Shown here one piece after another: positions 2,111 to 34,305 of a stretch of 64,000 bases of DNA. The stretch is taken from contig JAYULL010000171.1 of the NCBI GenBank assembly GCA_043763625.1, positions 16,077-80,076 on the forward strand, given 5' to 3'. The notes under the pieces are model-generated. The model had not been told where the DNA came from. It made no database searches and worked only from the letters and a program-made list of their open reading frames with translations. The position numbers and the translations under genes were made by a program. The first letter of the stretch is position 1. Each line of letters begins with the position of its first letter. This DNA comes from Sphingobacteriaceae bacterium. Its GTDB lineage: Bacteria; Bacteroidota; Bacteroidia; Sphingobacteriales; Sphingobacteriaceae.

Positions 2111-2724
2111 CGCCACAGAGACTAAACGATTTACTTGACGAATTAGTTAAACAACCTACAGAAAGTGAGTGGGTAGAATTTAAACACAATTTTCATTCTG
2201 CAGAAGAAATCGGAGAACGGATATCTGCAATTTCAAATGGCGCTTGCCTGCAAAATCAGGCATTCGGTTATCTTGTTTTTGGGATCCAAGATATTACGCA
2301 TCAAATTTTAGGCACCTCTTTTAAAGCTAAAACTTATAAAAAGGGCGGCGAAGATTTAGAACATTGGCTGGCAACACGTTTAAATCCGCGAATTGATTTC
2401 AGCGTTTTCGAATTTGATTATGATGAAGGGCGGCATATTTCTATGTATGTAATACCTGCCACGAATTCGCGTCCGGTTGAGTTTTTAAACAAGCCATATA
2501 TCCGGGTTGGCAGTATCACTCGAAATTTAGGAGAGTTTCCTGATAAAGAAGCTCGAATATGGCGGAAGCAATTCATCTCTTTTGAAAAAGAAATAGCCGA
2601 ATTTAATTTGAATGCTTCGGATGTCATTCGCTTATTAAGTACCCAAACTTATTTTGATCTGCTGAAACTGCCTTATCCATCTGATCAAAGGGTGTTATTG
2701 ATAAATTTCTTTCTGAAGGTTTGA
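2107..2724 (+). CDS. AlbA_2 (Schlafen-like) domain protein; N-terminal part of a frameshifted AlbA_2/HATPase_c_4 gene
   Basis: ESEWVEFKHNF...AISNGACLQNQAFGYLVFGIQD matches the AlbA_2 (PF04326) signature. The ATGA overlap with the hsdS stop indicates coupling. The frame ends at 2724, but the +1 frame is already open from 2685. Confidence 0.6.
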   Translation: MTPQRLNDLLDELVKQPTESEWVEFKHNFHSAEEIGERISAISNGACLQNQAFGYLVFGIQDITHQILGTSFKAKTYKKGGEDLEHWLATRLNPRIDFSVFEFDYDEGRHISMYVIPATNSRPVEFLNKPYIRVGSITRNLGEFPDKEARIWRKQFISFEKEIAEFNLNASDVIRLLSTQTYFDLLKLPYPSDQRVLLINFFLKV

Positions 2725-3554: not shown

Positions 3555-3559
3555 ATCTT

Positions 3560-3644
3560 ATGTGATGGTCATGTGATGGAAATGCTATATTTAAAACTAA
3601 TAGCTTGATATATAGATCATTATTATGTGATTGTTATGTGATTG
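3560..3644 (+). promoter_or_regulatory. Four direct ATGTGATKG repeats in two 11-bp-phased pairs upstream of hsdR; candidate operator
   Basis: ATGTGATGG occurs at 3560 and 3571, and ATGTGATTG at 3625 and 3636. They lie in the 147-bp gap before the hsdR ATG at 3702. Confidence 0.3.
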
Positions 3645-3701
3645 AACCATTTAAATACAAAATTTTAAGCCTGAAACTAATCTCGAAATACAGTTAAAAT
3701 A

Positions 3702-6026: not shown

Positions 6027-6135
6027 TCCGAATAGGTTAATGTAATACAAGTTTTTTAAATTAAGGTTTCTTCTGATAGTGCGGACACGAACTGGGGAAG
6101 ACGAATTAAATAATATAATCTAATATACCACACAA

Positions 6136-6936
6136 GTGAGCGTTTTTCGAGGAAATATTGATAACTGGCTGCGTCAGTGCGAGCCCGACTACTATTCTTT
6201 TTTTTTACGTGCATGGATCCCTTTTAATGCATGGTATGTAGCGGAGATGCCGCAACATAATAAAAAGGATCGTTTGTTAATTAAGGAATTGCAGGAAAAT
6301 ATGAATAGCAGGCCTCGATTACGTATTCAGGGATTGCTCACTAATGATGACTACGAATCGGAAAATTTTAAATACCACCTATCATTATTACATTATAATC
6401 TTGAAAAAAAGAATGTTTCCCATGATGGAAAAAAGCTTTCGTTTTGTTCAATAACCCTAACAGATAATCCAGTTAAGCATTCGAGTAAAGTAGATAAAAA
6501 AAGCAACAGATATAAGGCAGAAGTACAAAATACTTATTATGAAGCATTAATTGTGGCTCAAAACGGGAAGACGCTTATGCACTATAAACACCCGGGTTTT
6601 GACATAGAACATTTGAGGCGACATATAAAGTTTATAGGATTGGCCGATAAAAAGATTCAAGAAATTATTGCTGAATGTTACGCGAATATTGACCCCAATA
6701 AGCCCACCAATTTAGTTACAAATTCGAAAAAAAAAGGCGATTATATTTTTTTAAATTCTGATCAACCAGCCAAATTCGTTAATGATCAAATCACAATAGG
6801 AAAAGCAATCATTGGAGTACTTTATATGCTTCGGTGTATGCTTTTTCACGGTGAAATAGACCCTACTGATAGCAATAAAGTTTTATATGAACACTCCTAC
6901 TATCTACTTCGATTAATTCTTAAAGACTTGAACTAA
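6136..6936 (+). CDS. Hypothetical protein with a C-terminal HEPN-like R-x4-H motif
   Basis: 266 aa with a GTG start. The motif is VLYMLRCMLFHGEIDP (R-x4-H-G). The stop lies 1 nt before the next ATG. The gene looks AT-rich by eye. Confidence 0.5.
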   Translation: MSVFRGNIDNWLRQCEPDYYSFFLRAWIPFNAWYVAEMPQHNKKDRLLIKELQENMNSRPRLRIQGLLTNDDYESENFKYHLSLLHYNLEKKNVSHDGKKLSFCSITLTDNPVKHSSKVDKKSNRYKAEVQNTYYEALIVAQNGKTLMHYKHPGFDIEHLRRHIKFIGLADKKIQEIIAECYANIDPNKPTNLVTNSKKKGDYIFLNSDQPAKFVNDQITIGKAIIGVLYMLRCMLFHGEIDPTDSNKVLYEHSYYLLRLILKDLN

Positions 6937-6937
6937 A

Positions 6938-8710
6938 ATGAATCACGCAGCAAATAACATTGAAGCCAAAAGTAAAACGCTCAAGGACCTCTTAAAAGAG
7001 CGTAAATATCAAGTTAAATATTTTCAAAGAGAATATAAATGGGAAAAGAACCATATCGAAGACCTTATTATAGATTTGGAAAAGAGCTTTTTTTCAAATT
7101 TTCAAGTCGAACATACACGAGAAGACGTGCCCGACTACGATTGTTACTATATGGGGCCTGTTGTGCTTTATAGGGAAAAATCTTCTTTTGTTATAGTCGA
7201 CGGTCAACAACGACTAACTTCCTTTACTTTATTATTGATATATCTAACCCATTTGCAAAAAGAAATTTTTGTTGGAAATAAAAAGAAGATACAAAATTTA
7301 GATGAATATATCTATTCACAGCCTTATGAGAAGGAGACGTTTAACTTAGAAATTCAAGAACGCGAGGACATACTAAGGTGTTTATTTAAAAGTCTTGATC
7401 TGGAAGACGGGTTTCTCCTTAATGAATCCTCCCAGAATATATTAGACAGATATATTGATATAGTTGAATTATTCCCACCTACGCTAAAAAAAGACTATGT
7501 ATTACCCTTATTTATTAATTGGCTTGTCGAGAAGTTGATATTTATTGAAATACTGTCGCAGTCCAGTGATAGTGCCTATACGATCTTTGAAACAATGAAC
7601 GACAGAGGATTAAATCTTACTCAGTCAGAAATGTTAAAAAGTTATCTTTTATCAAGTGTGAAAGATGAGGAAAAAATAAAAGAACTTGACGCGGCATGGA
7701 AACAGAAAATTAGCTTAATTAAAACCTATAGTAGTGACGAAGATCAAGATTTTTTTAAAGCTTGGTTAAGAGCCAAATATGCTGTGGGCATAAGGACTAC
7801 CGAAAAAGGTGCTATTAACGAGGATTTTGAAAAAATTAGTACCAGGTTTAGCAATTGGGTTCAGGACAATTCTAAAAGATTGTTGAATTTAAATACTCCT
7901 GACGATTATTTTTATTTTATTGAGTCTGATTTCGATTTCTTCAGTGATATCTATTTGAAATTGTCCGAGATGGAGTTTAGCGAGAGTTTGCCAGAGCAAA
8001 GGTTTAAGTTACTTTCATACAAAGGTATTTCCCAATCATTGTCTTATCCTTTAATAATCTCTACAATTCAAAAGATTGATGATAACGAAACGGTGAATAA
8101 AAAGATAGAAACTTCGGTAAGTTATCTTGATTCTTTTTCAATTTATAGATTGCTATTAAATGAGTCAATAACTCATAGTACTGTTCGAAACAAAATATAC
8201 ACTAAAATAAAGGAGATAAGAGACAAAAGTTTTGAAGAAATAAGGGAAAACCTAAATGGCGAGATTGAGGATCTAAAGAAGCGATTTTTGAAGGAGATAG
8301 ACTATATTCCTTTTTATCCTAACTTCGGAAAATATGTCTTAGCGAGGGTATATAAGAGTAGAAATCCGCCTTTGTTTTTCGAAAATATCTATTTTCAAAG
8401 AAGGACAGCTTCTCTTGTCTTATTTCATTTTTTTACCCTTGACGATGTTGATGTAGAAGTACAAAAATTACCGAAAGGCTTGAAGGATATTATCATCAGA
8501 AGTTTATGCTCATACTGTTTGGTTACAAAAGAAGTTTTCAGTGAAGTGTCACGTCTCTCTTTGGTGAAGCGAATCCAATACTTGCTAAATAAGGGGTTTA
8601 TTTATGAATTTTCCGATCTCAAAGAAGTCGATTTAACAAATTTAAGAGAGTTCTTTATTACCCGTAATAAGCGTATGAAAGAGACTGTCATTAACTTGTG
8701 GAAGGTATGA
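6938..8710 (+). CDS. DUF262 (GmrSD N-terminal, ParB-like NTPase) domain protein with no recognisable DUF1524 nuclease domain
   Basis: 590 aa. Motifs YFQREYKW, VDGQQRLTS and FETMNDRGLNLTQSEMLK are present. No (D/E)HxxP...GNxxL His-Me signature was seen in the C-terminal ~250 aa. Confidence 0.8.
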   Translation: MNHAANNIEAKSKTLKDLLKERKYQVKYFQREYKWEKNHIEDLIIDLEKSFFSNFQVEHTREDVPDYDCYYMGPVVLYREKSSFVIVDGQQRLTSFTLLLIYLTHLQKEIFVGNKKKIQNLDEYIYSQPYEKETFNLEIQEREDILRCLFKSLDLEDGFLLNESSQNILDRYIDIVELFPPTLKKDYVLPLFINWLVEKLIFIEILSQSSDSAYTIFETMNDRGLNLTQSEMLKSYLLSSVKDEEKIKELDAAWKQKISLIKTYSSDEDQDFFKAWLRAKYAVGIRTTEKGAINEDFEKISTRFSNWVQDNSKRLLNLNTPDDYFYFIESDFDFFSDIYLKLSEMEFSESLPEQRFKLLSYKGISQSLSYPLIISTIQKIDDNETVNKKIETSVSYLDSFSIYRLLLNESITHSTVRNKIYTKIKEIRDKSFEEIRENLNGEIEDLKKRFLKEIDYIPFYPNFGKYVLARVYKSRNPPLFFENIYFQRRTASLVLFHFFTLDDVDVEVQKLPKGLKDIIIRSLCSYCLVTKEVFSEVSRLSLVKRIQYLLNKGFIYEFSDLKEVDLTNLREFFITRNKRMKETVINLWKV

Positions 8711-12287: not shown

Positions 12288-13826
12288 ATGAAATGTATAA
12301 TAACCATCTTCCTGTTTTTTATTTCATTTAATGCTTTTAGTCAAGCGGTAAAAGAGCCTATAACTTTGGCAAGTCCTGAACTGAATAAATATTTTGCATC
12401 GGCAAAACCCCCAACTGTTTCCGGAAAAATTATTAACGCAAGTCCTGAGGAGTTGGTAAAGCTTTCTGTAACTTATGCTTTGGTGACTCCTTTTAAAAAC
12501 TTCCAAGAAAAAGGGGTTTCTCCGCAAATAAAAAACGACGGAACATTTACATTTACTCTCGATTACCCCTTTCCTTATCAGCAAATTTGGTTTAACCTTG
12601 GCGATTATTTTTATGGAGCGTTGTATGTTAACAGGAATACGCACCTAGAGTTCGACTTCGCTCAACTGAAAAAAAAGGATGTTTACTTCATTGGAGAGGG
12701 TGTTAAGTATCTTGGGGAAGACGGACCCGCAACTGATTGGCTAAACAACCTGTTCATGTACCGACGTGAAGAGGTATCAGCAATTGAAGATTCCCTCAGA
12801 AAAATTGATGCTGAGATAGCTGATTATTCTGTGAAGACGGACTCAATCTATTCACTTTTACAGGGCATTCAGGATGAATATATCAAACTGCATCCCTCGC
12901 CCTATAGCTGGATTGCTAAAAATGAATTAAAATCAAAGTTTTACGAGACTCTGCTGTCAAAGGGGAGACGGAGTGGTGAAGAAATACAAAATTGGGAAGA
13001 CATTAAGCAGCATGTGCCGAAAATTATTTCTAATTCAGGCATGGGTTTTAATAGTATGCTTTATTCTTATCTTAATAGCAAAGTGAGTGGAAATCTTAAT
13101 AGTATGCTTTATTCTTATCGTGATAGCAAAGTGAGTGGAGATCCATCAGAAATTCGAAAACTTGTAAGTACTCCTAATTCTGACATACTGATGCTTCGGG
13201 CATCTATCGCCGATGTTAAGAAGAACGAAAAATTTCAGGACAGTTTGATAAAGGTGATAGAAACTCCTTGGGTAAGAGCCGCTATGAAGAAAAAGCAACA
13301 GCTTAATTTGCAAAAAACACAGCAACCTAATGCGTCTTTAAAAGCCGGGCTTAACGCGGGTAGCAATTCATCACTTGGTAAATTGATAGAGGAGCATCCT
13401 TATGGTGCCAAACTGTATAGTGCTGATAACATCGCCGCAGCAGATTTTCTTGCCAAGCTTTCTTCTCGTTTCAAAGGAAAAGCCATCGTGCTTGATTTCT
13501 GGGCAACATGGTGTGGTCCATGTATTGCTGCTATGCCATCAATGATGTCTGTAAATAAAGAAGCAGTAGATCTTCCCGTTGAATTTGTATATCTGTGTAC
13601 AAGCAGTAACTCCTCAATGGATTTATGGAAAAAGCAGGTTATAAAAATGAAACAGCAGGGAACACATGTGTTTTTAAATGAAAAATTAGCTAATGAGTTG
13701 ATGGCTCTGTTTGGCAAAGGTGGCTTTCCAAGTTACGTTTATTTGGATCGTAAGGGACAGATGTCTAAAGCAATAAGTGACTCTGAACATTTGTCAATAA
13801 ACGCATTAAAGAGATTAGTAGAGTAA
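12288..13826 (+). CDS. TlpA/ResA-like thiol:disulfide oxidoreductase with a long N-terminal domain
   Basis: 512 aa with a signal peptide. The thioredoxin active site FWATWCGPC lies near the C-terminus. Confidence 0.75.
   Translation: MKCIITIFLFFISFNAFSQAVKEPITLASPELNKYFASAKPPTVSGKIINASPEELVKLSVTYALVTPFKNFQEKGVSPQIKNDGTFTFTLDYPFPYQQIWFNLGDYFYGALYVNRNTHLEFDFAQLKKKDVYFIGEGVKYLGEDGPATDWLNNLFMYRREEVSAIEDSLRKIDAEIADYSVKTDSIYSLLQGIQDEYIKLHPSPYSWIAKNELKSKFYETLLSKGRRSGEEIQNWEDIKQHVPKIISNSGMGFNSMLYSYLNSKVSGNLNSMLYSYRDSKVSGDPSEIRKLVSTPNSDILMLRASIADVKKNEKFQDSLIKVIETPWVRAAMKKKQQLNLQKTQQPNASLKAGLNAGSNSSLGKLIEEHPYGAKLYSADNIAAADFLAKLSSRFKGKAIVLDFWATWCGPCIAAMPSMMSVNKEAVDLPVEFVYLCTSSNSSMDLWKKQVIKMKQQGTHVFLNEKLANELMALFGKGGFPSYVYLDRKGQMSKAISDSEHLSINALKRLVE
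13048..13143 (+). repeat. 48-bp tandem duplication inside the TlpA-like CDS
   Basis: ttaatagtatgctttattcttatc(t/g)t(a/g)atagcaaagtgagtgga(a/g)atc occurs twice. It encodes NSMLYSY(L/R)(N/D)SKVSG(N/D) x2. Confidence 0.8.
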
Positions 13827-24591: not shown

Positions 24592-25314
24592 ATGCAAGAA
24601 AACGAATTTTCAGTATTGGTAGCAAGCGAAACCCACATCCGTTATGCAGAAGAGATTGTAGAGGAAATGGCCGAATCGGCCAAAGCAAGGGGAACCGGTA
24701 TAGCTCGTCGCTCGTCGGAATATATTGCTAAAAAAATCCTTGAGGGTAAAGCCGTTATTGCTTTGCATATCGACGGCACATGGGCGGGTTTTTGTTATAT
24801 CGAAACGTGGAGTCACGGGAAGTTTGTAGCAAACTCCGGCCTTATTGTCAGTCCTAAGTTCAGGAACTTCGGATTAGCCAAAAAGATAAAACATAAAATT
24901 TTTGAGCTTTCAAGAGAACAATATCCCGACGCTAAGCTATTTGGCCTCACGACCGGCCTTGCCGTAATGAAAATTAACTCAGAAATCGGTTACGAACCCG
25001 TTACCTATTCAGAACTCACGCAGGATGAGGAGTTTTGGAAGGGCTGCAAAAGCTGCGTTAATTACGATATTCTAATGAGTAAAGACCGGAAAAACTGTAT
25101 GTGCACCGCCATGCTTTTCGACCCGACGGATATTCAGCAAAAATGGGAAAACAAGCTCAAAGCACTGGAAGAACAAAAGCGTGAACTTGAAGAACAAATA
25201 AAAAAAGTATCCCGAAAATCAACCTTGCTTGAACGGATTGAAGAGAAGCTACGCGGTTCTATAAAAGTTTTCGCGGCTTTAGGTGCATTGTTAACTAAAT
25301 TCCTACATCAATAA
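24592..25314 (+). CDS. GNAT family N-acetyltransferase (first gene of the Bacteroidota arginine operon, ArgA-like role)
   Basis: 240 aa. The position directly upstream of argG matches the operon layout. A C-terminal coiled-coil tail is present. Confidence 0.65.
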   Translation: MQENEFSVLVASETHIRYAEEIVEEMAESAKARGTGIARRSSEYIAKKILEGKAVIALHIDGTWAGFCYIETWSHGKFVANSGLIVSPKFRNFGLAKKIKHKIFELSREQYPDAKLFGLTTGLAVMKINSEIGYEPVTYSELTQDEEFWKGCKSCVNYDILMSKDRKNCMCTAMLFDPTDIQQKWENKLKALEEQKRELEEQIKKVSRKSTLLERIEEKLRGSIKVFAALGALLTKFLHQ

Positions 25315-25318
25315 TATC

Positions 25319-26551
25319 ATGAAGAAAAAAGTTGTATTAGCCTTCAGCGGGGGCCTGGACACTTCATATTGCGCCATATATCTATCTAAAGATTTAGACT
25401 TAGAAGTTCATTCAGTTATAGTTGATACCGGTGGTTTTACAACAGAAGAACTGGAGCACATTGAAAAAAGAGCCTATGCACTCGGGGTTCTTTCACACCA
25501 CGCTGTCGACGCCGTTAAAGGTTATTACGAAAGCAGTATCAGGTATTTAATTTACGGAAATGTTTTAAAGAACAATACTTATCCGCTTTCTGTAAGTGCC
25601 GAGCGTGTTACTCAAGCAACAGCAATTGCGGAGTATGCTAAAAAAATAAACGCGGATTTTGTAGCTCACGGATCAACGGGTGCCGGAAACGATCAGGTGC
25701 GTTTCGATATGATCTTTAATATTTTATGTCCAAACGTGGGTATTATTACTCCTATCCGGGATTTAAAATTATCCCGCGAAGCAGAAATTCAATATTTGAA
25801 ATCTCACGGCGTTGAATTTAACTTCGAGAAAGCGCAATACTCTATCAATAAAGGCATTTGGGGAACTTCTGTGGGCGGAAAAGAAACTTTGAAATCAAAG
25901 GGGATTTTGCCGGAAGAAGCTTGGCCTACTCAAGTATCTAAATCCGGCACGGAAGAAGTCGTTTTAGAGTTTGAGAAGGGCGAATTAATGGGAGTAAACG
26001 AAGAGAAATTCAATCATCCGGCAGATGCAATAAAAGCGGTTCAAGCTATAGTCGGACCTTACGGGATAGGAAGAGATGTTCATGTAGGCGATACAATTAT
26101 CGGGATTAAAGGTCGGGTAGGTTTTGAAGCCGCAGCGCCGATGGTAATTATCAAAGCCCACCATGCAATAGAAAAGCATACACTTACAAAATGGCAACTA
26201 AGCTGGAAAGATCAGCTTTCAATGTTTTACGGAAACTGGATGCACGAAGGTCAATTTCACGATCCGGTAATGCGCAATATCGAAGCCTTTCTTACCGATA
26301 CTCAAAAAACAGTTTCAGGGAAGGTGTTTGTGCAATTAATGCCTTATCGGTTCCAAGTTATGGGGATCGAATCTAAGCACGATTTAATGGCAAGCAAATT
26401 CGGTAGCTACGGGGAAATGAACGAAGGATATACCGGAGATGATGTAAAGGGTTTTTCGAAGATTTTCGGGAATCAGGTGAAGATTTACCATAGCGTGAAC
26501 CCCTCCGGCTCTCTTGAAGGGGAGAGCCTAAACGCAGATGGACATGATTAG
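25319..26551 (+). CDS. argG: Argininosuccinate synthase
   Basis: The N-terminal ATP-pyrophosphatase motif AFSGGLDTS is present. 410 aa. The C-terminal tail is encoded by a palindromic element and overlaps argC by 14 nt. Confidence 0.9.
   Translation: MKKKVVLAFSGGLDTSYCAIYLSKDLDLEVHSVIVDTGGFTTEELEHIEKRAYALGVLSHHAVDAVKGYYESSIRYLIYGNVLKNNTYPLSVSAERVTQATAIAEYAKKINADFVAHGSTGAGNDQVRFDMIFNILCPNVGIITPIRDLKLSREAEIQYLKSHGVEFNFEKAQYSINKGIWGTSVGGKETLKSKGILPEEAWPTQVSKSGTEEVVLEFEKGELMGVNEEKFNHPADAIKAVQAIVGPYGIGRDVHVGDTIIGIKGRVGFEAAAPMVIIKAHHAIEKHTLTKWQLSWKDQLSMFYGNWMHEGQFHDPVMRNIEAFLTDTQKTVSGKVFVQLMPYRFQVMGIESKHDLMASKFGSYGEMNEGYTGDDVKGFSKIFGNQVKIYHSVNPSGSLEGESLNADGHD
26507..26528 (+). repeat. GC-rich palindrome inside the argG 3' end
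   Basis: ggctctc ttgaaggg gagagcc. It is translated as PSGSLEGES. Confidence 0.55.
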
Positions 26552-27584
26552 GGCCGGAATTATCGGCGGTGCCGGATACACAGGAGGTGAACTACTTCGA
26601 ATTCTGGTAAACCACCTTTTCGTTGAAATCGCTTTTGTTCACAGTAACAGCAATGCCGGAAACTATATTTTTGACGTTCATACAGATTTAATCGGTGATA
26701 CCGATATTAAATTTACTAATAGTCTTGATTTTAATACGCTTTTTAACGTCTCCCCTACCGGGGGAGATTTAGAGCGGGCAGTATTGTTTCTTTGTGTAGG
26801 TCATGGCGATGCGAAAAAGTTTTTGGAAGCAAACGATGTTGACGGCAGAATAAAGATAATAGACTTAAGTCAGGATTTTAGATTAGCAGAAAACTCAAAA
26901 CTCAAAGCTAAAAGCTTCCTGTACGGCTTGCCGGAAATCAGCAGAGAGCAAATAAAATCAGCTCAAAATATTGCTAATCCCGGTTGTTTTGCAACTTGCA
27001 TCCAATTAGCTCTGCTTCCTTTAGCGAAAGCAGGATTATTAAAAAACGAAGCGCATATTTCTGCAACTACAGGCTCAACCGGTGCCGGACAAAGCTTGTC
27101 GCAAACTTCCCATTTTAGTTGGAGGAATAATAACCTTTCGGTTTACAAGGCTTTCGAGCATCAGCATTTAAAAGAAATCGGCGAGTCCTTAAACAGCTTA
27201 CAAGATCAAGTTTCTCTCTCTCCTTCGGAGAGGGCCGTGGTCAGGCTTAATTTTATTCCCTACAGAGGAGATTTTACCCGAGGTATCATGGCTTCTGTTT
27301 ACACAGAATGCAATTTAAGCGAGGAAGAAATTCGGGAGTTGTATAGGCAATATTATCAAGATCATGTTTTTACTCATGTAAGTGAAAAGAATATTGACCT
27401 AAAGCAAGTAGTCAACACCAATAAATGTTTGTTGTATGTCGAGAAACACGGGAACAAAGCATTTATTTTAAGCATAATCGATAACCTATTAAAGGGAGCT
27501 TCCGGACAAGCAGTTCAAAATATGAACCTGATGTTCGGATTGGATGAACGGGAGGGGCTGAGGTTGAAAGCCGGGGCTTTTTGA
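26538..27584 (+). CDS. argC: N-acetyl-gamma-glutamyl-phosphate reductase
   Basis: IIGGAGYTGGELLR is the NAD motif and ANPGCFAT contains the catalytic Cys. At 348 aa it is about 25 aa longer than the homologues I remember. Confidence 0.9.
   Translation: MDMIRAGIIGGAGYTGGELLRILVNHLFVEIAFVHSNSNAGNYIFDVHTDLIGDTDIKFTNSLDFNTLFNVSPTGGDLERAVLFLCVGHGDAKKFLEANDVDGRIKIIDLSQDFRLAENSKLKAKSFLYGLPEISREQIKSAQNIANPGCFATCIQLALLPLAKAGLLKNEAHISATTGSTGAGQSLSQTSHFSWRNNNLSVYKAFEHQHLKEIGESLNSLQDQVSLSPSERAVVRLNFIPYRGDFTRGIMASVYTECNLSEEEIRELYRQYYQDHVFTHVSEKNIDLKQVVNTNKCLLYVEKHGNKAFILSIIDNLLKGASGQAVQNMNLMFGLDEREGLRLKAGAF
26749..26767 (+). repeat. GC-rich palindrome inserted in-frame in argC
   Basis: tctcccc taccg ggggaga. 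It is translated as VSPTGGDL. Confidence 0.55.
27216..27247 (+). repeat. GC-rich palindromic element (CTCTCTCC-TTC-GGAGAGGG + CCGTGGTCAGGC) in-frame in argC
   Basis: It shares gagagggccg.gg..aggc with the copy at 29807-29838 and is translated as SLSPSERAVVRL. Confidence 0.6.
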
Positions 27585-27602
27585 GTGAAAAGTTAAAAGT
27601 AT
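27585..27602 (+). repeat. Left 18-bp inverted repeat of the four-helix-bundle cassette
   Basis: The reverse complement of gtgaaaagttaaaagtat matches 27971-27988 at 17 of 18 positions. It begins immediately after the argC stop. Confidence 0.65.
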
Positions 27603-27623
27603 AAAGCTAAAAGTTATTAGGAA

Positions 27624-27956
27624 GTGCAAGATTACCAGGAGTTATTGGTTTGGCAAAATTCACATAGGTTTACATTAAGCGTTTACCAAAATGTTTCTTC
27701 GTTTCCTAAAGAAGAAGCTTACAACTTGGTAAGTCAGCTTAAACGAGCTTCATCTTCAATACCTACAAACATTGCCGAAGGAACAGGCAGATATACTCAA
27801 AAGGATTTCGCAGGCTTTTTGCAAAATGCATTAGGCTCGGCTCATGAGATAGAATATCTTTTACTTCTTTCGAAAGACTTAGGATTTATACCTGACAATT
27901 CTTTTATCGACTTAAATAGTAGGGTCAATGAAACCAAAGCGATGCTGATGCCTTGA
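27624..27956 (+). CDS. Four-helix-bundle protein (23S rRNA intervening-sequence protein family, PF05635-like)
   Basis: 110 aa with a GTG start. YQELLVWQNSHRFTLSVYQ...LVSQLKRASSSIPTNIAEGTGRYTQKDFAGFLQNALGSAHEIEYLLLLSKDLGFI matches the family signature. Confidence 0.75.
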   Translation: MQDYQELLVWQNSHRFTLSVYQNVSSFPKEEAYNLVSQLKRASSSIPTNIAEGTGRYTQKDFAGFLQNALGSAHEIEYLLLLSKDLGFIPDNSFIDLNSRVNETKAMLMP

Positions 27957-27970
27957 TTAAGAAAGTCCGC

Positions 27971-27988
27971 ATACTTTAAACTTTTCAC
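27971..27988 (+). repeat. Right 18-bp inverted repeat of the four-helix-bundle cassette
   Basis: atactttaaacttttcac. Confidence 0.65.
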
Positions 27989-28011
27989 TTTCAACCTTAA
28001 ACTCCATCAAC

Positions 28012-29160
28012 ATGAATCTCTTCAACGTTTACCCCATCAACAATATAGAAATCGTAAAAGGCCAAGGCAGCTTAGTTTGGGACAATAAGGGCCAAGAGTA
28101 TTTAGACTTATACGGTGGCCATGCGGTTATCTCTATCGGACATACTCACCCGCACTATGTTAGCCGGGTTACTGAGCAATTGAACAAGCTCGGATTTTAT
28201 TCTAACTCGATAGAAATTCCGATCCAAAAACAATTAGCGGAAAAGCTTGGGAAGGTTTCCGGAAAAGAAGATTATCAATTATTTCTGATAAACTCCGGTG
28301 CGGAGGCTACCGAGAATGCTTTAAAACTTGCTTCTTTTTATAACGGGCGAAAAAAGATTATTTCGTTTACCGGAGCATTTCACGGTCGAACTTCATTAGC
28401 CGTTGCGGTTACGGATAATCCTAAAATTATAGCGCCTGTAAATCAAACAGACAATGTTATTTTCCTTCCTCATAATGATGAAGAAGCTTTAGAGAAAGCT
28501 TTCGCAGATTTCGGGGAAGAGATTTGTGCTGTAATTATTGAAGGAATTCAAGGAGTCGGCGGAATTAGAGTTGCATCAGAGAATTTCTTACAGACAATTC
28601 GTTCGCTTTGCGATACTTATAATGCCGTTTTCATTGCTGATTCTGTACAGTGCGGCTACGGCAGAACGGGCAAATTCTACTCTCACGATTATGCCGGAAT
28701 AGATGCAGATGTCTACACCATGGCTAAGGGAATGGGTAACGGTTTCCCGATAGGCGCTATTTCTATTGCTCCTAAATTTGAGGCTTGGCACGGAATGCTC
28801 GGAACAACTTTTGGCGGAAACCATCTGGCATGTGCTGCTGCGTTAGCAGTACTGGAAATAATAGAAAAAGAAAACCTGATGCAAAATGCAACTGATCTGG
28901 GAGCTTATTTGATAACCGAGTTGAAAAAATTTGATGTAATTAAAGAAGTCAGGGGCCGCGGTTTGATGATAGGAATAGATTTACCGGAAGAACTAAGTCA
29001 AGTAAAGAAGAATTTATTATTTAAACATCATATTTTTACCGGCGAAGCAAAACCGAACGTAATTCGTTTGCTTCCGGCGTTAACTTTAACTATGGCTGAT
29101 GCGGACAGATTTTTAGAAGCACTGGCTGTAGAGTTTAAGGCAGAGGCTGTAAAAATTTAA
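28012..29160 (+). CDS. argD: Acetylornithine/succinylornithine aminotransferase (class III PLP)
   Basis: 382 aa. Motifs LINSGAEATENA and DSVQCGYGRTGKFY are present, with the PLP lysine in TMAKGMGNGFP. Confidence 0.85.
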   Translation: MNLFNVYPINNIEIVKGQGSLVWDNKGQEYLDLYGGHAVISIGHTHPHYVSRVTEQLNKLGFYSNSIEIPIQKQLAEKLGKVSGKEDYQLFLINSGAEATENALKLASFYNGRKKIISFTGAFHGRTSLAVAVTDNPKIIAPVNQTDNVIFLPHNDEEALEKAFADFGEEICAVIIEGIQGVGGIRVASENFLQTIRSLCDTYNAVFIADSVQCGYGRTGKFYSHDYAGIDADVYTMAKGMGNGFPIGAISIAPKFEAWHGMLGTTFGGNHLACAAALAVLEIIEKENLMQNATDLGAYLITELKKFDVIKEVRGRGLMIGIDLPEELSQVKKNLLFKHHIFTGEAKPNVIRLLPALTLTMADADRFLEALAVEFKAEAVKI

Positions 29161-29177
29161 CTATTAATCTTAGTGCT

Positions 29178-29240
29178 TGTCACTCTGAGCGTAGTCGAAG
29201 AGTCTAAGCAATAGATGCTTCGCTCACGATCAGCATGACA
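29178..29240. repeat. Imperfect inverted-repeat element related to family B, in the argD-argF' gap
   Basis: tgtcactctgagcgtagtcgaagagtc...gatgcttcgctcacgatcagcatgaca. Confidence 0.4.
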
Positions 29241-29278
29241 AAATGCAATAATAACACTTCATTATCGAACAATAAAGG

Positions 29279-30298
29279 ATGCGAATTTTTACTTCTGTTC
29301 ACGACGTTAACAATGTTCCGGCAATTGTTGACGAAGCTTTATTTCTGAAGCAAAATCCATTTTCAAACCAAGAAATAGGGAAAAACAAAACAATCGGGCT
29401 GATATTCATGAACCCGAGCCTTCGAACTCGCTTAAGCACACAAAAAGCTGCTCTTAACTTGGGTATGAACGTTATCGTAATGAACATGGATAAAGAGGGT
29501 TGGGCTTTAGAAACCCGCGACGGAGTAGTAATGAACGGAACAACGGTAGAACATATACGCGAAGCTGCCGGAGTGATGGGAGAATATTGTGATATTTTAG
29601 GTATCCGCTCGTTTCCCGGCCTAAAAGACAAAGAAGAAGATTACAGTGAGGACATTTTTAACAAGTTTGTAAAATACAGTGGCAAACCGGTTGTAAGTTT
29701 AGAAAGCGCAATACGCCATCCGCTGCAAAGTCTAGCCGATTTAATTACTATAGTGGAACATTCTAAGGTATCTTCTGTGATAGAAAATGCAAACGGCGGT
29801 TTTGTTCCCTCTCCACCGGAGAGGGCCGGGGTGAGGCCCAAAGTAGTTCTCACTTGGGCTCCTCACGTAAAATCTCTTCCTCAAGCTGTCCCAAACTCCT
29901 TTTCTGAATGGATGTGCAGAGCACAAAATGAAGGAATGCTTGACTTTGTAATCACGCATCCCGAAGGATATGAACTTGCAGAAGAATTTACTCAGGGAGC
30001 AAAAATCACGCATAATCAGGATGAAGCTTTAAAAGGAGCTGATTTTATTTATGTAAAAAACTGGTCGAGCTTTAAGGATTATGGAAAAGTTCTAACCTCG
30101 GGTGAGGGTTGGATGTTAAACCGGGAAAGACTTAAGAGCACTAACCGAGCAAAAGTAATGCATTGTCTTCCCGTGAGACGAGATTTAGAATTAAGTTCTG
30201 ACATTTTAGACAGCCACGATTCTATAGTAATTAAAGAAGCAGGAAATAGGGTGTGGGCTGCGCAGGCAGTATTAACGCGAATGTTGAAAAACCTTTAG
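29279..30298 (+). CDS. argF: N-acetyl/N-succinyl-ornithine carbamoyltransferase (ArgF'-type)
   Basis: Motifs FMNPSLRTRLS, HPLQSLADL and HCLPVRR are present. At 339 aa it has an insert of about 20 aa before RPKVVLTWAPH. Confidence 0.85.
   Translation: MRIFTSVHDVNNVPAIVDEALFLKQNPFSNQEIGKNKTIGLIFMNPSLRTRLSTQKAALNLGMNVIVMNMDKEGWALETRDGVVMNGTTVEHIREAAGVMGEYCDILGIRSFPGLKDKEEDYSEDIFNKFVKYSGKPVVSLESAIRHPLQSLADLITIVEHSKVSSVIENANGGFVPSPPERAGVRPKVVLTWAPHVKSLPQAVPNSFSEWMCRAQNEGMLDFVITHPEGYELAEEFTQGAKITHNQDEALKGADFIYVKNWSSFKDYGKVLTSGEGWMLNRERLKSTNRAKVMHCLPVRRDLELSSDILDSHDSIVIKEAGNRVWAAQAVLTRMLKNL
29807..29838 (+). repeat. GC-rich palindromic element (CCCTCTC-CACCG-GAGAGGG + CCGGGGTGAGGCC) in-frame in argF'
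   Basis: It has a 7-bp stem and is translated as PSPPERAGVRP. Confidence 0.6.
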
Positions 30299-30799
30299 CA
30301 GAAGTATATCTCTAAGTCTTTTAAAAATACGGACGAAAAGAAGTTTTAACCTTTATGCAGAAATACCGTTTTGCCACAATTGTATTTGCAGTTTGATGAG
30401 AGACATAGAGCATAATATCTGCCTTTTTGGTATCAAAAGAGTTAGTAAAACATCATTGTTTATTCTCCCCTAGCCAAGGGCGGTCCTCAAGCCGGAGCTT
30501 TAACCGGTAAAGATATTTTAGTTATTTTTTCGGAACCACACGCTTACATTTCTGCCGGTGTTCCAATAAACAGAAAGCATCCATACCGAGAATTACATTA
30601 TTAACGCCGACCTGCCGCCACAGACGTCAGGATATTTACTTTGGGAAGGCAAACGATATGAACTAAAGGCGGGCCGGTTCGCCTGGCACCCGCTTCCGCC
30701 GGGGGAATAAAGGGAAAAAAATTTATTTTTTCTATTACGTGTTTAAACTTCTTTATAAAACTTTTGTCTATGATGCATAGAGTTTTTTAGTGTAGGTGT

Positions 30800-30839
30800 A
30801 GAGAGGGGGGGCAGTTCGAAAGGGCTGCTCTCTTTTTTT
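30800..30839 (+). terminator. Possible rho-independent terminator (bulged hairpin plus T7)
   Basis: agaga-gggggg-gcag ttcgaaaggg ctgc-tctct ttttttt. Confidence 0.35.
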
Positions 30840-30846
30840 GTGTAAC

Positions 30847-31293
30847 TTACTTTTTTCCCTCCGTCGAATTCCTCCTGATCAGCTCGTCCAGACTCCATTT
30901 GCCTGCACCGAAAACCAATAAGGCTAATAAGAAGATTAAGTAATAAAGCGGTATCTCGAATCCGTTATCGCCTGCTTCAAAGCCATTGCCCCAATGCACC
31001 GTTTTGATGGCAACAAGCATCACGACAATTAGCGGGATAGTAATAAAACGTATTCCTAATCCTAGAACTAACAGAATGACTCCTAAAGCTTCGGTTCCGG
31101 CAGCGAGGTAAGCGTTTAAAGCCGGAAAAGGAATACCCATTCCTTTAAACCAGTCTATAATATCATTTATATTAGTCCATTTCATAACTGCAGGTTCGTA
31201 AAAACCGTAAGCTAAGACCATGCGAATAAGAAACAGTGGAAGTGATTTTGCCGTTGAAAGCAAAGCAATGTACTTCAATACAAATTTTTTCAT
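30847..31293 (-). CDS. DoxX family membrane protein (last gene of the MNIO RiPP cluster)
   Basis: 148 aa with 4 TM segments and DoxX-like topology and size. Synteny with DUF692/DUF2063 supports the call. Confidence 0.7.
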   Translation of the reverse strand: MKKFVLKYIALLSTAKSLPLFLIRMVLAYGFYEPAVMKWTNINDIIDWFKGMGIPFPALNAYLAAGTEALGVILLVLGLGIRFITIPLIVVMLVAIKTVHWGNGFEAGDNGFEIPLYYLIFLLALLVFGAGKWSLDELIRRNSTEGKK

Positions 31294-31337
31294 TTTGTTT
31301 GATTTAATTATGAAGGAAAGGATTGATAAGATTTATG

Positions 31338-32087
31338 TTACAGCTTAAAACCCAAGATGAATTGCTTTTGCTTCATCTCGTTTAAAAAGTTTACGGTATA
31401 TTCGATAAGTTGGTTTTTTTCGGTATCAGGAAACAAAGAAGCTGTTTCGTCTAATATTTCTTGCAGGGTATATTCGGCGTTAAGCAGTTGCTCAACCACA
31501 ATCGCGTAAAGTCCGGAAAGATTAACAAACTCCACTTCGCGGGTTTCCAAATCCCGATAGGCCAGTAGAAAGTATACTCCTTTGTTAACCTCCAAATTTT
31601 CAGGAGTTGTAAGATGAACCGGATATTCGAATTGAACAATTTTAGTTTCAGGATTAACAACAACGATGTCGATAAGCCAATCACCTTGAGGTTTGTATTC
31701 CCGCACCGGCAAATCTTCCATATTATAAAGCTCAATCTCGAGCCATTCGAAATATAAAAGATCCTTTAAATACGGCAGCTCGGGTTTTTCGGAGAACTCG
31801 TTTTCAATCAGATATTCGTAAAACTCAAAGGGGAGTTTCCAAACTTGAGGCGACTGAGCTTTGTGGTTAGAAAAGAAATTTTGAACTAATTCGTGCCATT
31901 TATCCTCACCCAGTAATTGAAAAGTAATAGGATAAGCGTTTTCAAGCGTATCGAAAACTACATTGTAGACAAGTTCGCGGTAGCGGGAAATATTTTTATT
32001 TGTTCCGGGGATTTCGGGCTTTATTCCTGTTCGGCAATAGTCGGCAAGCAAGCTTTGGGCTTCAAAAGTTTCAGACTGCAAGTGCAT
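31338..32087 (-). CDS. DUF2063-type RiPP maturation partner protein (BufC/HvfC-like)
   Basis: 249 aa. The start overlaps the DUF692 stop by 17 nt. The position immediately after DUF692 is the canonical arrangement. Confidence 0.6.
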   Translation of the reverse strand: MHLQSETFEAQSLLADYCRTGIKPEIPGTNKNISRYRELVYNVVFDTLENAYPITFQLLGEDKWHELVQNFFSNHKAQSPQVWKLPFEFYEYLIENEFSEKPELPYLKDLLYFEWLEIELYNMEDLPVREYKPQGDWLIDIVVVNPETKIVQFEYPVHLTTPENLEVNKGVYFLLAYRDLETREVEFVNLSGLYAIVVEQLLNAEYTLQEILDETASLFPDTEKNQLIEYTVNFLNEMKQKQFILGFKL

Positions 32088-32898
32088 GAGTTCTTACTGC
32101 TTTTGAAGCGCAAATAAATTTCAGTCGTTCTAGTTCTGTTTGCAATTCTTCCATTTCCGGAATATTGAAATCGCGTTCAAGCAAAACCGGCACGTTGTCG
32201 ACCAAATTCATAGTGTAATCAAAAAGGTCGAAAACGGGTTCTACAATGGCTTCTCCGTGCGTATCAATGATTAGATCTTCCGAAACTTGTTCGTGTCCTG
32301 CCATGTGGATGTACGCAACCTCGCTTAAAGGCAATCCGCTAATAAATGCTTTTGCATCGTATTTATGATTAAAAGAGTTTACATACACATTGTTCACATC
32401 GAGCAAAAGTTTGCAACCGGATTTGGCAACTATGGAATTGATAAAGGCGAGTTCGTCCATTTCTGCGGCAACAGGCGAATAATAAGAAACAATTTCGAGC
32501 ACTAATTCTCGCCCTAAAAAGCCTTGAATAGAATCAATTCTGTTTACAATATGATTAACTGCATCATGCCGAAAAGGGATTGGAAGTAAATCGTAGAGGT
32601 GAGCGTTATTGCATTTGGAATAGCTCAAATGCTCGGAGTAGATCTTGACGTTGTATTCTTGGAGAAAATTCTTTATCTGTTTCAAAAAATCCCAATCCAA
32701 CTCGTCCGGACTGCCGATAGAAAGCGAAAGACCGTGAGTAAAAATCGGATACTTCTCAGCAACTCGGTTTAGCATTTTTTTCCAATTTCCGCCTAATCCC
32801 ACCCAATTTTCCGGAGCAAGTTCAACGAAGTCAGGCTTTATCACCGATCCTTCTATTAACTCTTCGGCAAAATCACGTCTAAATCCTATTCCTACCAT
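32071..32898 (-). CDS. DUF692 multinuclear non-haem iron oxidative enzyme (MNIO; BufB/HvfB/MbnB family)
   Basis: MVGIGFRRDF...FVELAPENW...THGLSLSIGS...SEHLSY...LLDVNNVYVNS...YIHMAGH matches DUF692 blocks. The ATG at 32898 is preferred over 32970. Confidence 0.85.
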   Translation of the reverse strand: MVGIGFRRDFAEELIEGSVIKPDFVELAPENWVGLGGNWKKMLNRVAEKYPIFTHGLSLSIGSPDELDWDFLKQIKNFLQEYNVKIYSEHLSYSKCNNAHLYDLLPIPFRHDAVNHIVNRIDSIQGFLGRELVLEIVSYYSPVAAEMDELAFINSIVAKSGCKLLLDVNNVYVNSFNHKYDAKAFISGLPLSEVAYIHMAGHEQVSEDLIIDTHGEAIVEPVFDLFDYTMNLVDNVPVLLERDFNIPEMEELQTELERLKFICASKAVRTHALAV

Positions 32899-32986
32899 AA
32901 TTGCTTCAAAGTATTTCGTCGTCTCGACGATAGGAGAGATCCTCGCTTTCGCTTTCCTTCCCATCGTCAATACGACAAATCATTAA

Positions 32987-33322
32987 TTATTTTTTCTTGT
33001 CGCCACCGCATTTACCTTCGCCGCATTTTGCGTCTTTGGTTTTTGCTTTAGCACCTTTTTTACCTTTAGCACCACATTTGCCGTCTTTAGTTTTAGCACC
33101 GCATTTACCGTCTTTAGTTTTAGTGCTGTCTTTTCCGCACTTTAATTCAAAAGCTTTGTCCACAACATTGTTGGAAAGTAATTCAGCTCTAACTTCAGAA
33201 GCTGTACCTAAAGAAGAATACGTGTTTAAGGAAGCCGCCGCAGTAGCAGCTAATGCCGACACACTCATAATTGCTCCGGCCAATAAAGAGCCGCTTAAGA
33301 TTGATTTTTTGTTTGATTTCAT
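32987..33322 (-). CDS. Secreted Cys/Gly/Lys-repeat RiPP precursor (HvfA/bufferin-like metallophore candidate)
   Basis: 111 aa. A Sec signal peptide (MKSNKKSILSGSLLAGAIMSVSALA) is followed by five C-G dipeptides in KCGK, DGKCGAK x2 and KCGEGKCGG. It lies directly upstream of the MNIO gene. Confidence 0.7.
   Translation of the reverse strand: MKSNKKSILSGSLLAGAIMSVSALAATAAASLNTYSSLGTASEVRAELLSNNVVDKAFELKCGKDSTKTKDGKCGAKTKDGKCGAKGKKGAKAKTKDAKCGEGKCGGDKKK
33065..33118. repeat. 27-bp tandem repeat x2 within the precursor gene
   Basis: tttagcacc(a/g)cattt(g/a)ccgtctttagt occurs twice and encodes TKDGKCGAK x2 on the minus strand. Confidence 0.85.
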
Positions 33323-33461
33323 TTTGTGTAAATTAATTGTTTATAGTTGTCAGCTTCCCGCTGAATATTTTAGTTCTACCTTTAATCTTGGTTTTTTGAT
33401 TATTGTCTCGTGCTTCCTTTTCTCTCTTAGACGTTCCGTGGAAATAAGCCTTACAATAAAA

Positions 33462-33734
33462 TTAACCTTTTTTTATTTCGCTATCAATTATCTTTTCTAA
33501 GTTCGACTTAAAATCTTCATGGAGTTTAAAATCAATACTATTTTCCATATATAATTCTTTCACCTTTCGTTCGATAAACCGACTTTGCTTGCTATACAAT
33601 TTACAGAAAGAACAACCGATTAAGTGAATCGAAAGCTCTAATCCTTTCCTCCGGCTCAAGCCTTCCGAATTTCTTCTTTCAATAAGCTCGGTAGCCTTTT
33701 TGCAATTCCATAATAATGCTATAAGCCCTGACAT
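33462..33734 (-). CDS. Anti-sigma factor, soluble zf-HC2/ZAS type
   Basis: 90 aa with motif H-LIG-C-SF-C (H-x3-C-x2-C) and no TM segment. The start lies 1 nt after the sigma-factor stop. Confidence 0.6.
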   Translation of the reverse strand: MSGLIALLWNCKKATELIERRNSEGLSRRKGLELSIHLIGCSFCKLYSKQSRFIERKVKELYMENSIDFKLHEDFKSNLEKIIDSEIKKG

Positions 33735-33735
33735 T

Positions 33736-34305
33736 CTATCTCCCTACCCAATTTTTCTCCACACAAGCCCTTAAACTTAATTTAGCTCGGTGCATGATTA
33801 CCCAAAAGTTAGACGGCGATAAATTCAGTTCCTTACAAATGTTTTCCGAATCCTCATCATCAAGGTGTTTCATCGTGAATACTGACAACCATAAGTACGG
33901 CATTTTTCCCATACATAGTTTCAGCATTTCGCCAAATTCTTTATTTTCTATAGAATCAGCTTCATCGTAAGCAATTTCACGCGGGCTGTATTCAGGCTTC
34001 CAGTGTCCGTTGTCTTCAAAAAAATTATCCGGATTCAATTCATTTATACTATGCGAAATAGTTTTATTCCCCGCATTTTTTCGATGATAATCAATGATTT
34101 TATTTTTAAGAATTGCAACCAACCAAGTTCTTTCGGAACTTTTGCCTTGAAACGAACCACGGTTTTTAAGGCCGGATATAAAAGTATCCTGAATTAAATC
34201 TTTGCAAGTTTCTGAGTCTGAAATTCTCCTTACCGCAAAAGCATACAAATAATCGGCGTGATTTTTAACCCAAGCCTCCGGTTCTAAACTTTTATCTTGG
34301 TGCAA
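33736..34305 (-). CDS. ECF-type RNA polymerase sigma-70 factor
   Basis: 189 aa. Region 2 reads DLIQDTFISGL...WLVAILKNKIIDYHR. Region 4 contains an HTH at SENICKELNLSPSNFWVIMHRAKLSLR. Confidence 0.85.
   Translation of the reverse strand: MHQDKSLEPEAWVKNHADYLYAFAVRRISDSETCKDLIQDTFISGLKNRGSFQGKSSERTWLVAILKNKIIDYHRKNAGNKTISHSINELNPDNFFEDNGHWKPEYSPREIAYDEADSIENKEFGEMLKLCMGKMPYLWLSVFTMKHLDDEDSENICKELNLSPSNFWVIMHRAKLSLRACVEKNWVGR

Follow-up and report, generated by a model that had tools for sequence, protein, structure and literature searches.

One class of short bacterial repeats, known earlier as BoxC, then as PIT (potential intrastrand triplex) elements and now as TM_ECO, has the potential to fold a single DNA strand into a triplex. 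Earlier work on BoxC and PIT elements is reportedly that of Bachellier in the 1990s and of Hoyne and Maher in 2000 and 2002. Here, we describe elements of this kind in a 64-kb stretch of DNA from a Sphingobacteriaceae bacterium (contig JAYULL010000171.1, positions 16,077 to 80,076; hereafter the window, whose positions give all coordinates below). They sit inside argG, argC and argF', three genes of an arginine operon on the + strand at 24.6-30.3 kb. We regard them as very probably copies of the BoxC/PIT/TM_ECO class of potential intrastrand (purine-motif) triplex repeats.

In the passages of Holder et al. (2015, PMC4666352) that deal with the motif, TM_ECO is presented as a class II purine-motif intrastrand triplex with the pattern CCCTCNCCC-N3-6-GGGNGAGGG-N3-GGGNGAGGG. 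These passages count 3610 copies in 262 proteobacterial genomes and 23 in Escherichia coli K-12, every one of the latter intergenic, and link no mobility genes to the E. coli copies. As a single strand the motif forms a stable triplex in vitro; in vivo none was detected in E. coli, and PIT elements had no promoter, terminator or polymerase effects there. The motif is tied to local sequence instability, purine-motif triplexes are said not to form in RNA, and triplex motifs rich in G/C get a mention for cyanobacteria and Thermus as well. Neither Bacteroidota nor coding copies are mentioned in these passages, and the literature that we could search yielded no report of coding or in-frame triplex motifs in Bacteroidota. 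The pan-bacterial class itself is already described, and the identity of the elements with it is secure. What appears to be new is the presence of translated in-frame copies, their recurrence at the same sites with covariation of the triads, and their bias towards the arginine operon and its sense strand.

Three-arm motifs within arginine genes

In each unit, a pyrimidine arm and a loop of 3-5 nt precede the purine arm that pairs with it; a linker of 3 nt then leads to a second purine arm, the mirror of the first. The best-preserved triplex-type motif lies at 29807-29836 (+), in frame in argF' (29279-30298, +; N-succinyl/acetyl-ornithine carbamoyltransferase), where it encodes P177-R186 (PSPPERAGVR). 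Its pyrimidine arm CCCTCTCC (29807-29814) is joined by the loop ACC to the purine arm GGAGAGGG (29818-29825), and the linker CCG leads to the third arm GGGTGAGG (29829-29836); the three-arm scanner finds 8/8 Watson-Crick pairs and 8/8 mirror triads. This copy fits TM_ECO type B (CCG linker), with arms of 8 nt rather than 9 nt, the outermost base being different in each of the 9-nt arms. An 18-mer taken from it, GAGAGGGCCGGGGTGAGG, is identical to five K-12 entries in the tabulated part of PMC4666352 and recurs unchanged at 120 loci or more across phyla, nearly all with the layout CTCCCTCTCCC - short loop - GGGAGAGGGCCGGGGTGAGGG. Enterobacteriaceae, Verrucomicrobiota, Planctomycetota, Acidobacteriota, Myxococcota, Deinococcus, Chloroflexota, Bifidobacterium and Bacteroidota are all represented among the matches listed.

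Two further copies lie in argC, also in frame on the + strand. Site 2 (27216-27245, LSPSERAVVR) is partly decayed: the pyrimidine arm CTCTCTCC, the loop TTC, the purine arm GGAGAGGG and the linker CCG are followed by a third arm, TGGTCAGG, that makes only 6/8 triads and departs from the TM_ECO sequence pattern by two mismatches. Site 1 (26749-26778, SPTGGDLERA) belongs to a second sequence type, built from the pyrimidine arm TCTCCCCT, loop ACC, purine arm GGGGGAGA, linker TTT and third arm AGAGCGGG. In sequence it is unlike the argF' copy and the TM_ECO pattern, yet its grammar is the same. Its third arm makes 7/8 triads, and the asymmetry of the purine arm shows it to be a true mirror repeat. 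All three + strand units keep the order of the arms, with 7-8/8 pairs and 6-8/8 triads. The fourth element, at 26500-26528 on the - strand (minus strand GGCTCTCCCC-TTCAA-GAGAGCC-GGAGGGG), is degenerate and lies in the ArgG C-terminal tail PSGSLEGESLNADGHD (26503-26548, +). Its hairpin at 26507-26528 is weak (7 bp, 8-nt loop, DNA fold z -1.2). The two nearest relatives (loci L201 and L202) carry clear, mutually different reverse-strand three-arm copies at the same tail, and the argG element is best read as a decayed reverse-strand copy.

The stems at 26749-26767 and 29807-29825 are perfect over 7-8 bp and that at 27216-27234 has eight pairs, one of them G·T; the fold z-scores of single hairpins are modest (-1.2 to -1.9). 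Across the 64 kb, the only GC-rich hairpins with CT-rich and GA-rich arms are the two in argC and the one in argF'. Three further polypyrimidine/polypurine hairpins were listed, with unrelated arm sequences, and neither the hairpin listing nor the three-arm scan of the window yielded a motif copy outside the arginine genes. At gathering thresholds the window had no Rfam match, and the 24-31 kb region had none at E <= 1 either.

An earlier note on this DNA, made from the sequence alone, had reported four hairpin elements in argG, argC (twice) and argF'. All four were found at its coordinates, in the reading frames and with the encoded peptides that it gave. It also saw a consensus in the last two, and indeed 27215-27246 and 29806-29837 are identical at 27/32 positions, and the 20-mer pattern GGAGAGGGCCGNGGTNAGGC matches exactly these two sites (0 expected, 100 shuffles). 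The description as palindromes with a consensus tail needs revision: since the layout matches TM_ECO, the tail is the CCG linker plus the mirror-repeat third arm of a triplex motif. A 14-nt overlap of argG and argC, which the note ascribed to the argG element, exists only if argC starts at the ATG at 26538; the database protein begins at 26544 (MIRAG...), which gives an overlap of 8 nt, as in L201. The note had allowed that the genes might be pseudogenes. They are intact: argG (25319-26551, +; argininosuccinate synthase) has NCBIfam and PDB matches, argC (26544-27584, alternative start 26538, +; N-acetyl-gamma-glutamyl-phosphate reductase) matches PDB entries, homologues and TIGR01850 (284.9 bits, cut-off 233.6), and argF' has family, PDB and homologue matches.

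Alignment with orthologues places the extra residues where the elements are, as the note expected, and the usual enzyme lengths that it gave agree with those of orthologues lacking insertions. ArgF' has 339 aa here vs 319 aa in such orthologues; the 120 closest are mostly 319 aa long, with 'EEHKKTAKPKVV' at the loop. Codons S162-R186 (29762-29836, +) add 20 residues beyond the four (KKTA) of the 319-aa proteins, a position on which the orthologue alignment and a codon alignment with L201 agree. The solved structures 1js1 (Bacteroides fragilis ArgF') and 2fg6 show a 20-residue gap exactly at this loop. In the AlphaFold model the insertion has a predicted local distance difference test score (pLDDT) of 55-61, vs 88-95 on either side, and lies between helix H148-164 and strand E188-194. 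Part of the segment is not motif-like: eleven AT-rich codons (SSVIENANGGF, ~29771-29803) directly 5' of the motif are missing in L201, and these extra 33 nt have no similar sequence in the window or in any locus examined.

ArgC has 346/348 aa here vs 325-326 aa in orthologues without insertion. Lengths among its orthologues span 325-378 aa, and those in the base state lack the segments of sites 1 and 2. Site 1 is a clean 13-codon indel (~26739-26777) relative to L201, the nearest relative. At site 2, about nine codons are missing in base-state orthologues, and L201 holds an orthologous copy in the same frame that is better preserved. In the structural check proposed in the note, the ArgF' insertion thus occupies a loop that is modelled with low confidence and flanked by a helix and a strand; the model of ArgC is of too low a quality to be given weight (mean pLDDT 64; residues 222-231 below 50) and says little about sites 1 and 3. 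The ArgG tail is some 10-12 residues longer than in most orthologues, which stop 3-6 residues after 'KVN'. ArgF' varies between 319 and 349 aa in the family, and Desertivirga and Paradesertivirga have a 319-aa ArgF' and a 326-aa ArgC with no copy. On these alignments, the elements are confirmed as lineage-specific, in-frame insertions in intact, conserved enzymes.

The third arm is real and not a product of the scanner. The DNA scanned came to about 1.07 Mb and consisted of the window together with 80 metagenomic loci surrounding argC orthologues and eight loci retrieved by exact protein. Strict three-arm scans gave 15-23 hits vs 0 in shuffled sequence. Mirror triads at 6/7 positions or better occurred 3' of the purine arm in 28 of 70 polypyrimidine/polypurine hairpins and on its 5' side in none of the same 70. 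Where the arms are asymmetric, the third arm is a perfect mirror 14 times and a perfect direct repeat once. It is therefore antiparallel to the purine arm, as in the class II purine motif (G*G, A*A or T*A triads). The note had suggested that the hairpins could affect processing of the operon at the RNA level. The mirror third arm points to DNA instead, since RNA does not form purine-motif triplexes according to the passages of PMC4666352 on the motif.

The elements also behave as DNA-level units and not as peptide modules. A single motif is read as PSPxERAGVR or LSxGEGRGE, and reversed as LTPALSKGEGE. Across lineages, the ArgF' loop contains PSPSERAGVR, its alternative-frame reading PSGEGWGEA, the reverse-strand reading LTPALSKGEGEE, SPSGGDLEGA from the second sequence type, or tandem copies, and ArgC sites 1 and 2 show a similar range of readings. 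Coding copies use stop-free frames only, and several copies lie just 5' of start codons or in spacers. In other Bacteroidota, the 18-mer occurs in frame in a methylase-like open reading frame (ORF; reverse strand) and in an altronate-dehydratase-like ORF, as well as in spacers. A search for host proteins with a synthetic concatenate of the motif-encoded peptides returned 175 word-sharing candidates, none of which scored.

Recurrence, covariation and biases

The same sites are occupied differently in related genomes. At the ArgG tail, the window, L201 and L202 have three different reverse-strand copies, and the copies at ArgC site 2 and in ArgF' are common to the window and L201 in the same frame. 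Site 1 of argC is empty in L201 and decayed in L202, and at six Pedobacter loci it holds three variants, which we call A (TCTCCCC / GGGGAGA / AGAGGGG), B (CCTCCCC / GGGGAGG / GGAGGGG) and C (TCCCCTC / GAGGGGA / AGGGGAG). Each variant is internally perfect; that is, three triad positions change on all three arms together. The variant does not track gene similarity, since L204 (B) and L207 (C) are 82% identical. At the ArgF' loop, copies are antisense in some lineages and sense in others. Such a flip is beyond the reach of point-mutation drift in one ancestral copy and requires that units be replaced or re-inserted. As the sole process, slow compensatory change within a single ancestral copy at each site was rejected, given the opposite orientations and the mismatch between variants and similarity.

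Two Pedobacter species pairs (loci L203/L208 and L204/L205) have site-1 motifs that are identical at 33/33 nt, loop included. The remaining argC sequence of each pair is 76-79% identical, with 52-55% identity at third codon positions; inside the motif 11/11 third positions are identical, which alone has a probability of about 1e-3 per pair. These identity islands imply that the nucleotide sequence either is under purifying selection or was recently copied from a common source. L205 carries a motif at a third insertion site in argC (equivalent to window ~26890-26925), where that of L202 is decayed. Where the motif is missing, species already have a pyrimidine-rich stretch, AACTCCCAACTCTCC, so that the pyrimidine arm may be recruited from pre-existing coding sequence. 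As a side observation, the arginine operons of the six Pedobacter loci (L203-L208) are unusually cluttered between cistrons, with extra genes that vary by species (DUF1016/YhcG nuclease-like, GNAT, cupin, alpha/beta-hydrolase and toxin-antitoxin-like). Such clutter is consistent with a hotspot of local rearrangement in the operon.

The distribution of copies is strongly uneven. In the scanned DNA, 29/30 distinct motif sites fall within the arg-operon span, which makes up 467 kb of 1,067 kb (44%; binomial p = 7e-10). When only loci with a site are counted and the window is left out, 27/28 sites lie in the span, which covers 56% of the bases of these loci (p = 2e-6). The density is 6.2 sites per 100 kb inside the span vs 0.17 outside, 'outside' being the immediate neighbourhood of arginine operons only, and nearly all hits of a 23-hit scan of 940 kb also lie in the span. 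Although six loci were selected for ArgC insertions, 14 in-span sites lie outside argC. Motifs occupy the argG tail, the argG/argC junction, argC sites 1-3, the argC/argD junction, the loops of argF', argB and argE, and a junction at argE; about 22 of the 30 sites are truly inside coding sequence. One locus (L155) has 4-5 copies within 9 kb, in successive genes. The strand is biased as well: the pyrimidine-purine-purine strand is the sense strand at 25/30 sites and antisense at five (p = 3e-4), which fits folding of the non-template strand.

An association with arginine genes outside Bacteroidota was also considered. It was rejected, with an arg gene near 1/120 of the 18-mer loci among the matches listed. 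E. coli K-12 (L209, NC_000913.3) does have one of its 23 BoxC/TM_ECO copies at 289246-289278, 22 nt 3' of the stop codon of argF (which belongs to the family of the present host gene); this is probably a coincidence.

Explanations for spread and persistence

Our preferred explanation as a whole, to which we give a probability of roughly 0.55, is that BoxC/PIT/TM_ECO copies turn over in these genomes by structure-driven, transposase-independent events. The specific mechanism, namely structure-driven turnover in single-stranded DNA with the products tolerated as flexible loops, is offered tentatively, at slightly less than even confidence. In such a scheme, the motifs would be DNA-level units, neither protein modules nor carried by a transposase. 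An exposed single strand, chiefly the non-template strand of the transcribed operon, would fold into a hairpin or triplex, and the folded structure would stall or redirect replication and repair. Whole units of ~30 nt could then be inserted, swapped for a variant, flipped or eroded via template switching or short-tract conversion, with turnover confined to a few positions (surface loops and gene junctions). Genic copies would persist only in stop-free frames (in the GGGTGAGG type one sense frame is closed by TGA, and in the GAGATTTAGAG type one is closed by TAG) and only where the enzyme is unharmed by a loop rich in Gly/Pro/Ser/Glu. The proteins most likely carry the insertions as neutral passengers. 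A check of 30 window ORFs turned up no transposase. The model accounts for which frames and orientations are seen, for decay and for the lack of mobility genes.

Several points weigh against it. The concentration in the arginine operon and the identity islands are not explained by the model alone: passive insertion plus tolerance does not predict 29/30 sites in the span, and the 33/33 islands and the covariation of whole triads are equally readable as purifying selection on a structure. We found no template-switch or conversion intermediate, no donor copy and no target-site signature. Sampling is narrow, as the comparison outside reaches no further than the operons' own neighbourhood and many loci are phylogenetically non-independent. 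Finally, the triplex was not detected in vivo in E. coli, according to the same passages of PMC4666352. The operon bias and the strand bias would both follow if the motifs originated on the non-template strand in a manner linked to transcription, or if a cis-acting structure were under selection.

Such a selected structure could be either a non-template-strand fold or an mRNA hairpin, that tunes elongation, polarity or mRNA stability along the operon at roughly one motif per gene. We consider this less likely than the preferred explanation, but a serious rival to it. In its favour are the enrichment in the span (6.2 vs 0.17 sites per 100 kb), the 25:5 sense-strand bias, 33/33-nt identity where synonymous sites are near saturation, three-way covariation that keeps every triad at argC site 1, and recurrence at the same loops and intercistronic junctions, including the 4-5 copies in successive genes of L155. 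On the other hand, the motifs are dispensable, since in many close lineages a copy is missing at a given site or altogether, and copies visibly decay or flip orientation. The 18-mer elsewhere is not near arginine genes (1/120 loci among the matches listed), other Bacteroidota carry it in unrelated genes (the methylase and the altronate dehydratase-like ORF), and the PIT elements described in the passages of PMC4666352 were without promoter, terminator or polymerase effects in E. coli in vivo. A more specific version, a DNA-level sensor or attenuator in which a purine-motif triplex of the non-template strand is under selection in the arginine operon of Sphingobacteriia, strikes us as a long shot. 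The stability of purine-motif triplexes depends on Mg2+ and polyamines. As polyamines derive from arginine and ornithine, high polyamine levels would stabilize the fold and throttle elongation through the operon, a feedback without a protein regulator. If true, the triad covariation and the 33/33 islands would be the first comparative evidence of an intrastrand triplex selected in vivo.

Repetition of one motif, in frame in several genes, with the same sites struck repeatedly in both orientations and with copies nearly identical within and between genomes, could also be the work of a conventional selfish element, that is, a palindrome similar to Rickettsia palindromic elements (RPEs), to repetitive extragenic palindromes (REPs) and their REPIN doublets, or to MITEs (miniature transposable elements that carry inverted repeats), moved by an enzyme encoded elsewhere. 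This seems improbable to us. The units are ~30 nt long, without long inverted repeats or a GTAG/CGTC head, and neither a transposase nor a REP-associated tyrosine transposase (RAYT) was seen among the window ORFs, nor near the E. coli copies in the passages of PMC4666352 that treat them. Transposition leaves the mirror repeat, the defining regularity, unexplained; an identical 18-mer in distant phyla is hard to square with a lineage-specific transposon; and there are almost no copies in the flanking spacers, where a selfish insert should pile up. Protein-level selection, in which Gly/Pro/Ser/Glu/Arg-rich peptides serve as linkers or interaction loops and the DNA regularity is a by-product, is very improbable. 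The peptides are translated in frame at domain or secondary-structure boundaries, and some (e.g. SPxGGDLEGA) are conserved across Pedobacter. Yet at one and the same loop the DNA motif yields unrelated peptides in other frames or in the other orientation, conservation inside the motif is complete at third codon positions too, non-coding copies exist, and base-state orthologues as well as the solved B. fragilis enzyme do without the loop. Chance low-complexity sequence or an assembly artefact might be invoked because the elements are short and their fold z is only -1.2 to -1.9, and is scarcely credible against 15-23 motif hits in real sequence vs 0 in shuffles, two hits vs 0 expected in the pattern test, and orthologous copies in independent assemblies, complete isolate genomes included.

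BoxC/PIT/TM motifs came to notice some 30 years ago. Although common across bacteria and able to form triplexes in vitro, they have been assigned neither a role nor a mode of spread, and in vivo results have been negative. The arginine operon of Sphingobacteriaceae provides orthologous, datable sites at which the arms can be seen changing together and compared with synonymous sites, and its operon and strand biases can be tested genome-wide. If the constraint is real, evolution would for the first time provide evidence that the triplex-forming design itself matters in cells. If a transcription-linked mutational process lies behind the pattern, structured DNA of ~30 nt repeatedly writes new loops into conserved enzymes without a transposase. 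In both enzymes, the motifs explain much of the odd length variation within Sphingobacteriaceae (ArgC 325-378 aa, ArgF' 319-349 aa). Similar variation in other proteins may stem from such motifs, given the in-frame copies in the methylase and dehydratase-like ORFs.

Surroundings and related repeat systems

The nearest named relatives of the window genome are Sphingobacteriaceae: a metagenome-assembled genome at ~80% protein identity, then Pedobacter, Desertivirga and Arcticibacter. A foreign origin of the operon was rejected, as its GC content (0.41) is close to that of the flanks (0.40). The operon opens with a GNAT-like gene (24592-25314, +), and between argC and the gene of an argD-type transaminase (28012-29160, +; family match), in which the three-arm scanner finds no motif in this genome, lies a gene for a four-helix bundle (27624-27956, +). 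This Avd-like gene, missing in L201, matches the '23S rRNA IVS protein' family (intervening sequence; TIGR02436 / PF05635) and lies between the two arms (27584-27602 and 27971-27989, 95% complementary) of a 19-nt inverted repeat. In related loci, tblastn gave 35 matches to it at ~24 loci (own gene and a few split hits included), all of them inside arginine operons and none in ~600 kb of flanks; there are often 2-3 such genes per operon, after argC, argD and proC. The argD-argF' spacer (29178-29240) folds, with imperfect pairing, into a long hairpin (-28.2 kcal/mol and z -3.2 as RNA) that contains the 16-mer CTGAGCGTAGTCGAAG. This 16-mer is also present in L020 (inside the loop of a triplex-type motif), L149 and L195, and with two mismatches at window 12650-12665 (-); it has no Rfam match and appears to represent a second small repeat family of Bacteroidota.

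The operon ends at argF', followed by ~550 bp of non-coding DNA (30299-30846) with GC-rich hairpins at ~30667-30700 and ~30795-30830. In relatives, argB, proC, argE and argH come directly after argF'; as they do not do so in the window, they must be elsewhere in this genome. Further downstream (30847-34305, -) is a copper-binding metallophore cluster of the HvfA/bufferin type, a ribosomally synthesized and post-translationally modified peptide (RiPP) system with an extracytoplasmic function (ECF) sigma factor, an anti-sigma factor, the HvfB MNIO maturase, HvfC, a DoxX-like HvfX and an HvfA precursor with KCG repeats (32987-33322). At the start of the window (30-8710) is a defence island, in which the type I restriction-modification genes hsdM, hsdS and hsdR are interspersed with Schlafen/AlbA_2 and HATPase_c_4 genes and followed by a GmrSD-type nuclease.

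The earlier note likened the elements to RPEs, selfish palindromes that insert in frame into protein genes. RPEs are said to be palindromes of ~100-150 bp found only in Rickettsia (Ogata et al. in 2000 and 2002). The likeness is one of behaviour, not of membership: in both cases repeated DNA stands in frame in housekeeping genes, the peptide is tolerated at the surface, and copies also occur between genes. The arg elements differ in size (~30-nt units, whole insertions of 9-20 codons, not 100-150 bp), in their mirror third arm, and in belonging to the BoxC/PIT/TM_ECO class, which extends across phyla with its pan-bacterial 18-mer. REPs, bacterial interspersed mosaic elements (BIMEs) and REPINs are, like the arg elements, short (20-40 nt), GC-rich, hairpin-forming, multi-copy and often within operons. 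However, REPs are extragenic, have a GTAG/CGTC head and are linked to RAYTs, and the arg elements show none of the three: the head is absent from the element sequences and no Y1 transposase is encoded among the 30 window ORFs. MITEs have terminal inverted repeats and a target-site duplication and are usually > 50 bp long. The units here are only ~30 nt and have no long terminal inverted repeats; no target-site duplication was noted at the one clean indel, where no systematic search was made and the relatives are too diverged to show one.

Small dispersed repeats (SDRs) of cyanobacteria reportedly come as units of ~20-30 nt that seem to enter genes and spacers without a known enzyme (Elhai et al. 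in 2008). Like the arg elements they can sit inside coding sequence; they are other sequence families, for which no triplex grammar has been described. H-DNA shares the polypurine/polypyrimidine mirror symmetry of the arg elements, and such tracts are associated with polymerase stalling and genome instability (PMC11667243). H-DNA needs a long duplex mirror repeat and supercoiling, whereas the arg motif has its own hairpin and third arm on one strand. The closest system is TM_ECO itself, as portrayed in the passages of PMC4666352 on the motif. It has the three-arm grammar and nearly the same sequence in common with the window elements, is likewise multi-copy and without a linked mobility gene, and similarly shows local turnover, decayed copies and palindromic or flipped arrangements. 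Unlike TM_ECO, the arg elements present several variants at one site with triad covariation and favour one operon and its sense strand. The copies of E. coli K-12 are intergenic, whereas those described here are mostly translated, in frame, inside conserved enzymes; intergenic placement is a trait of the E. coli set and not part of the definition of the motif.

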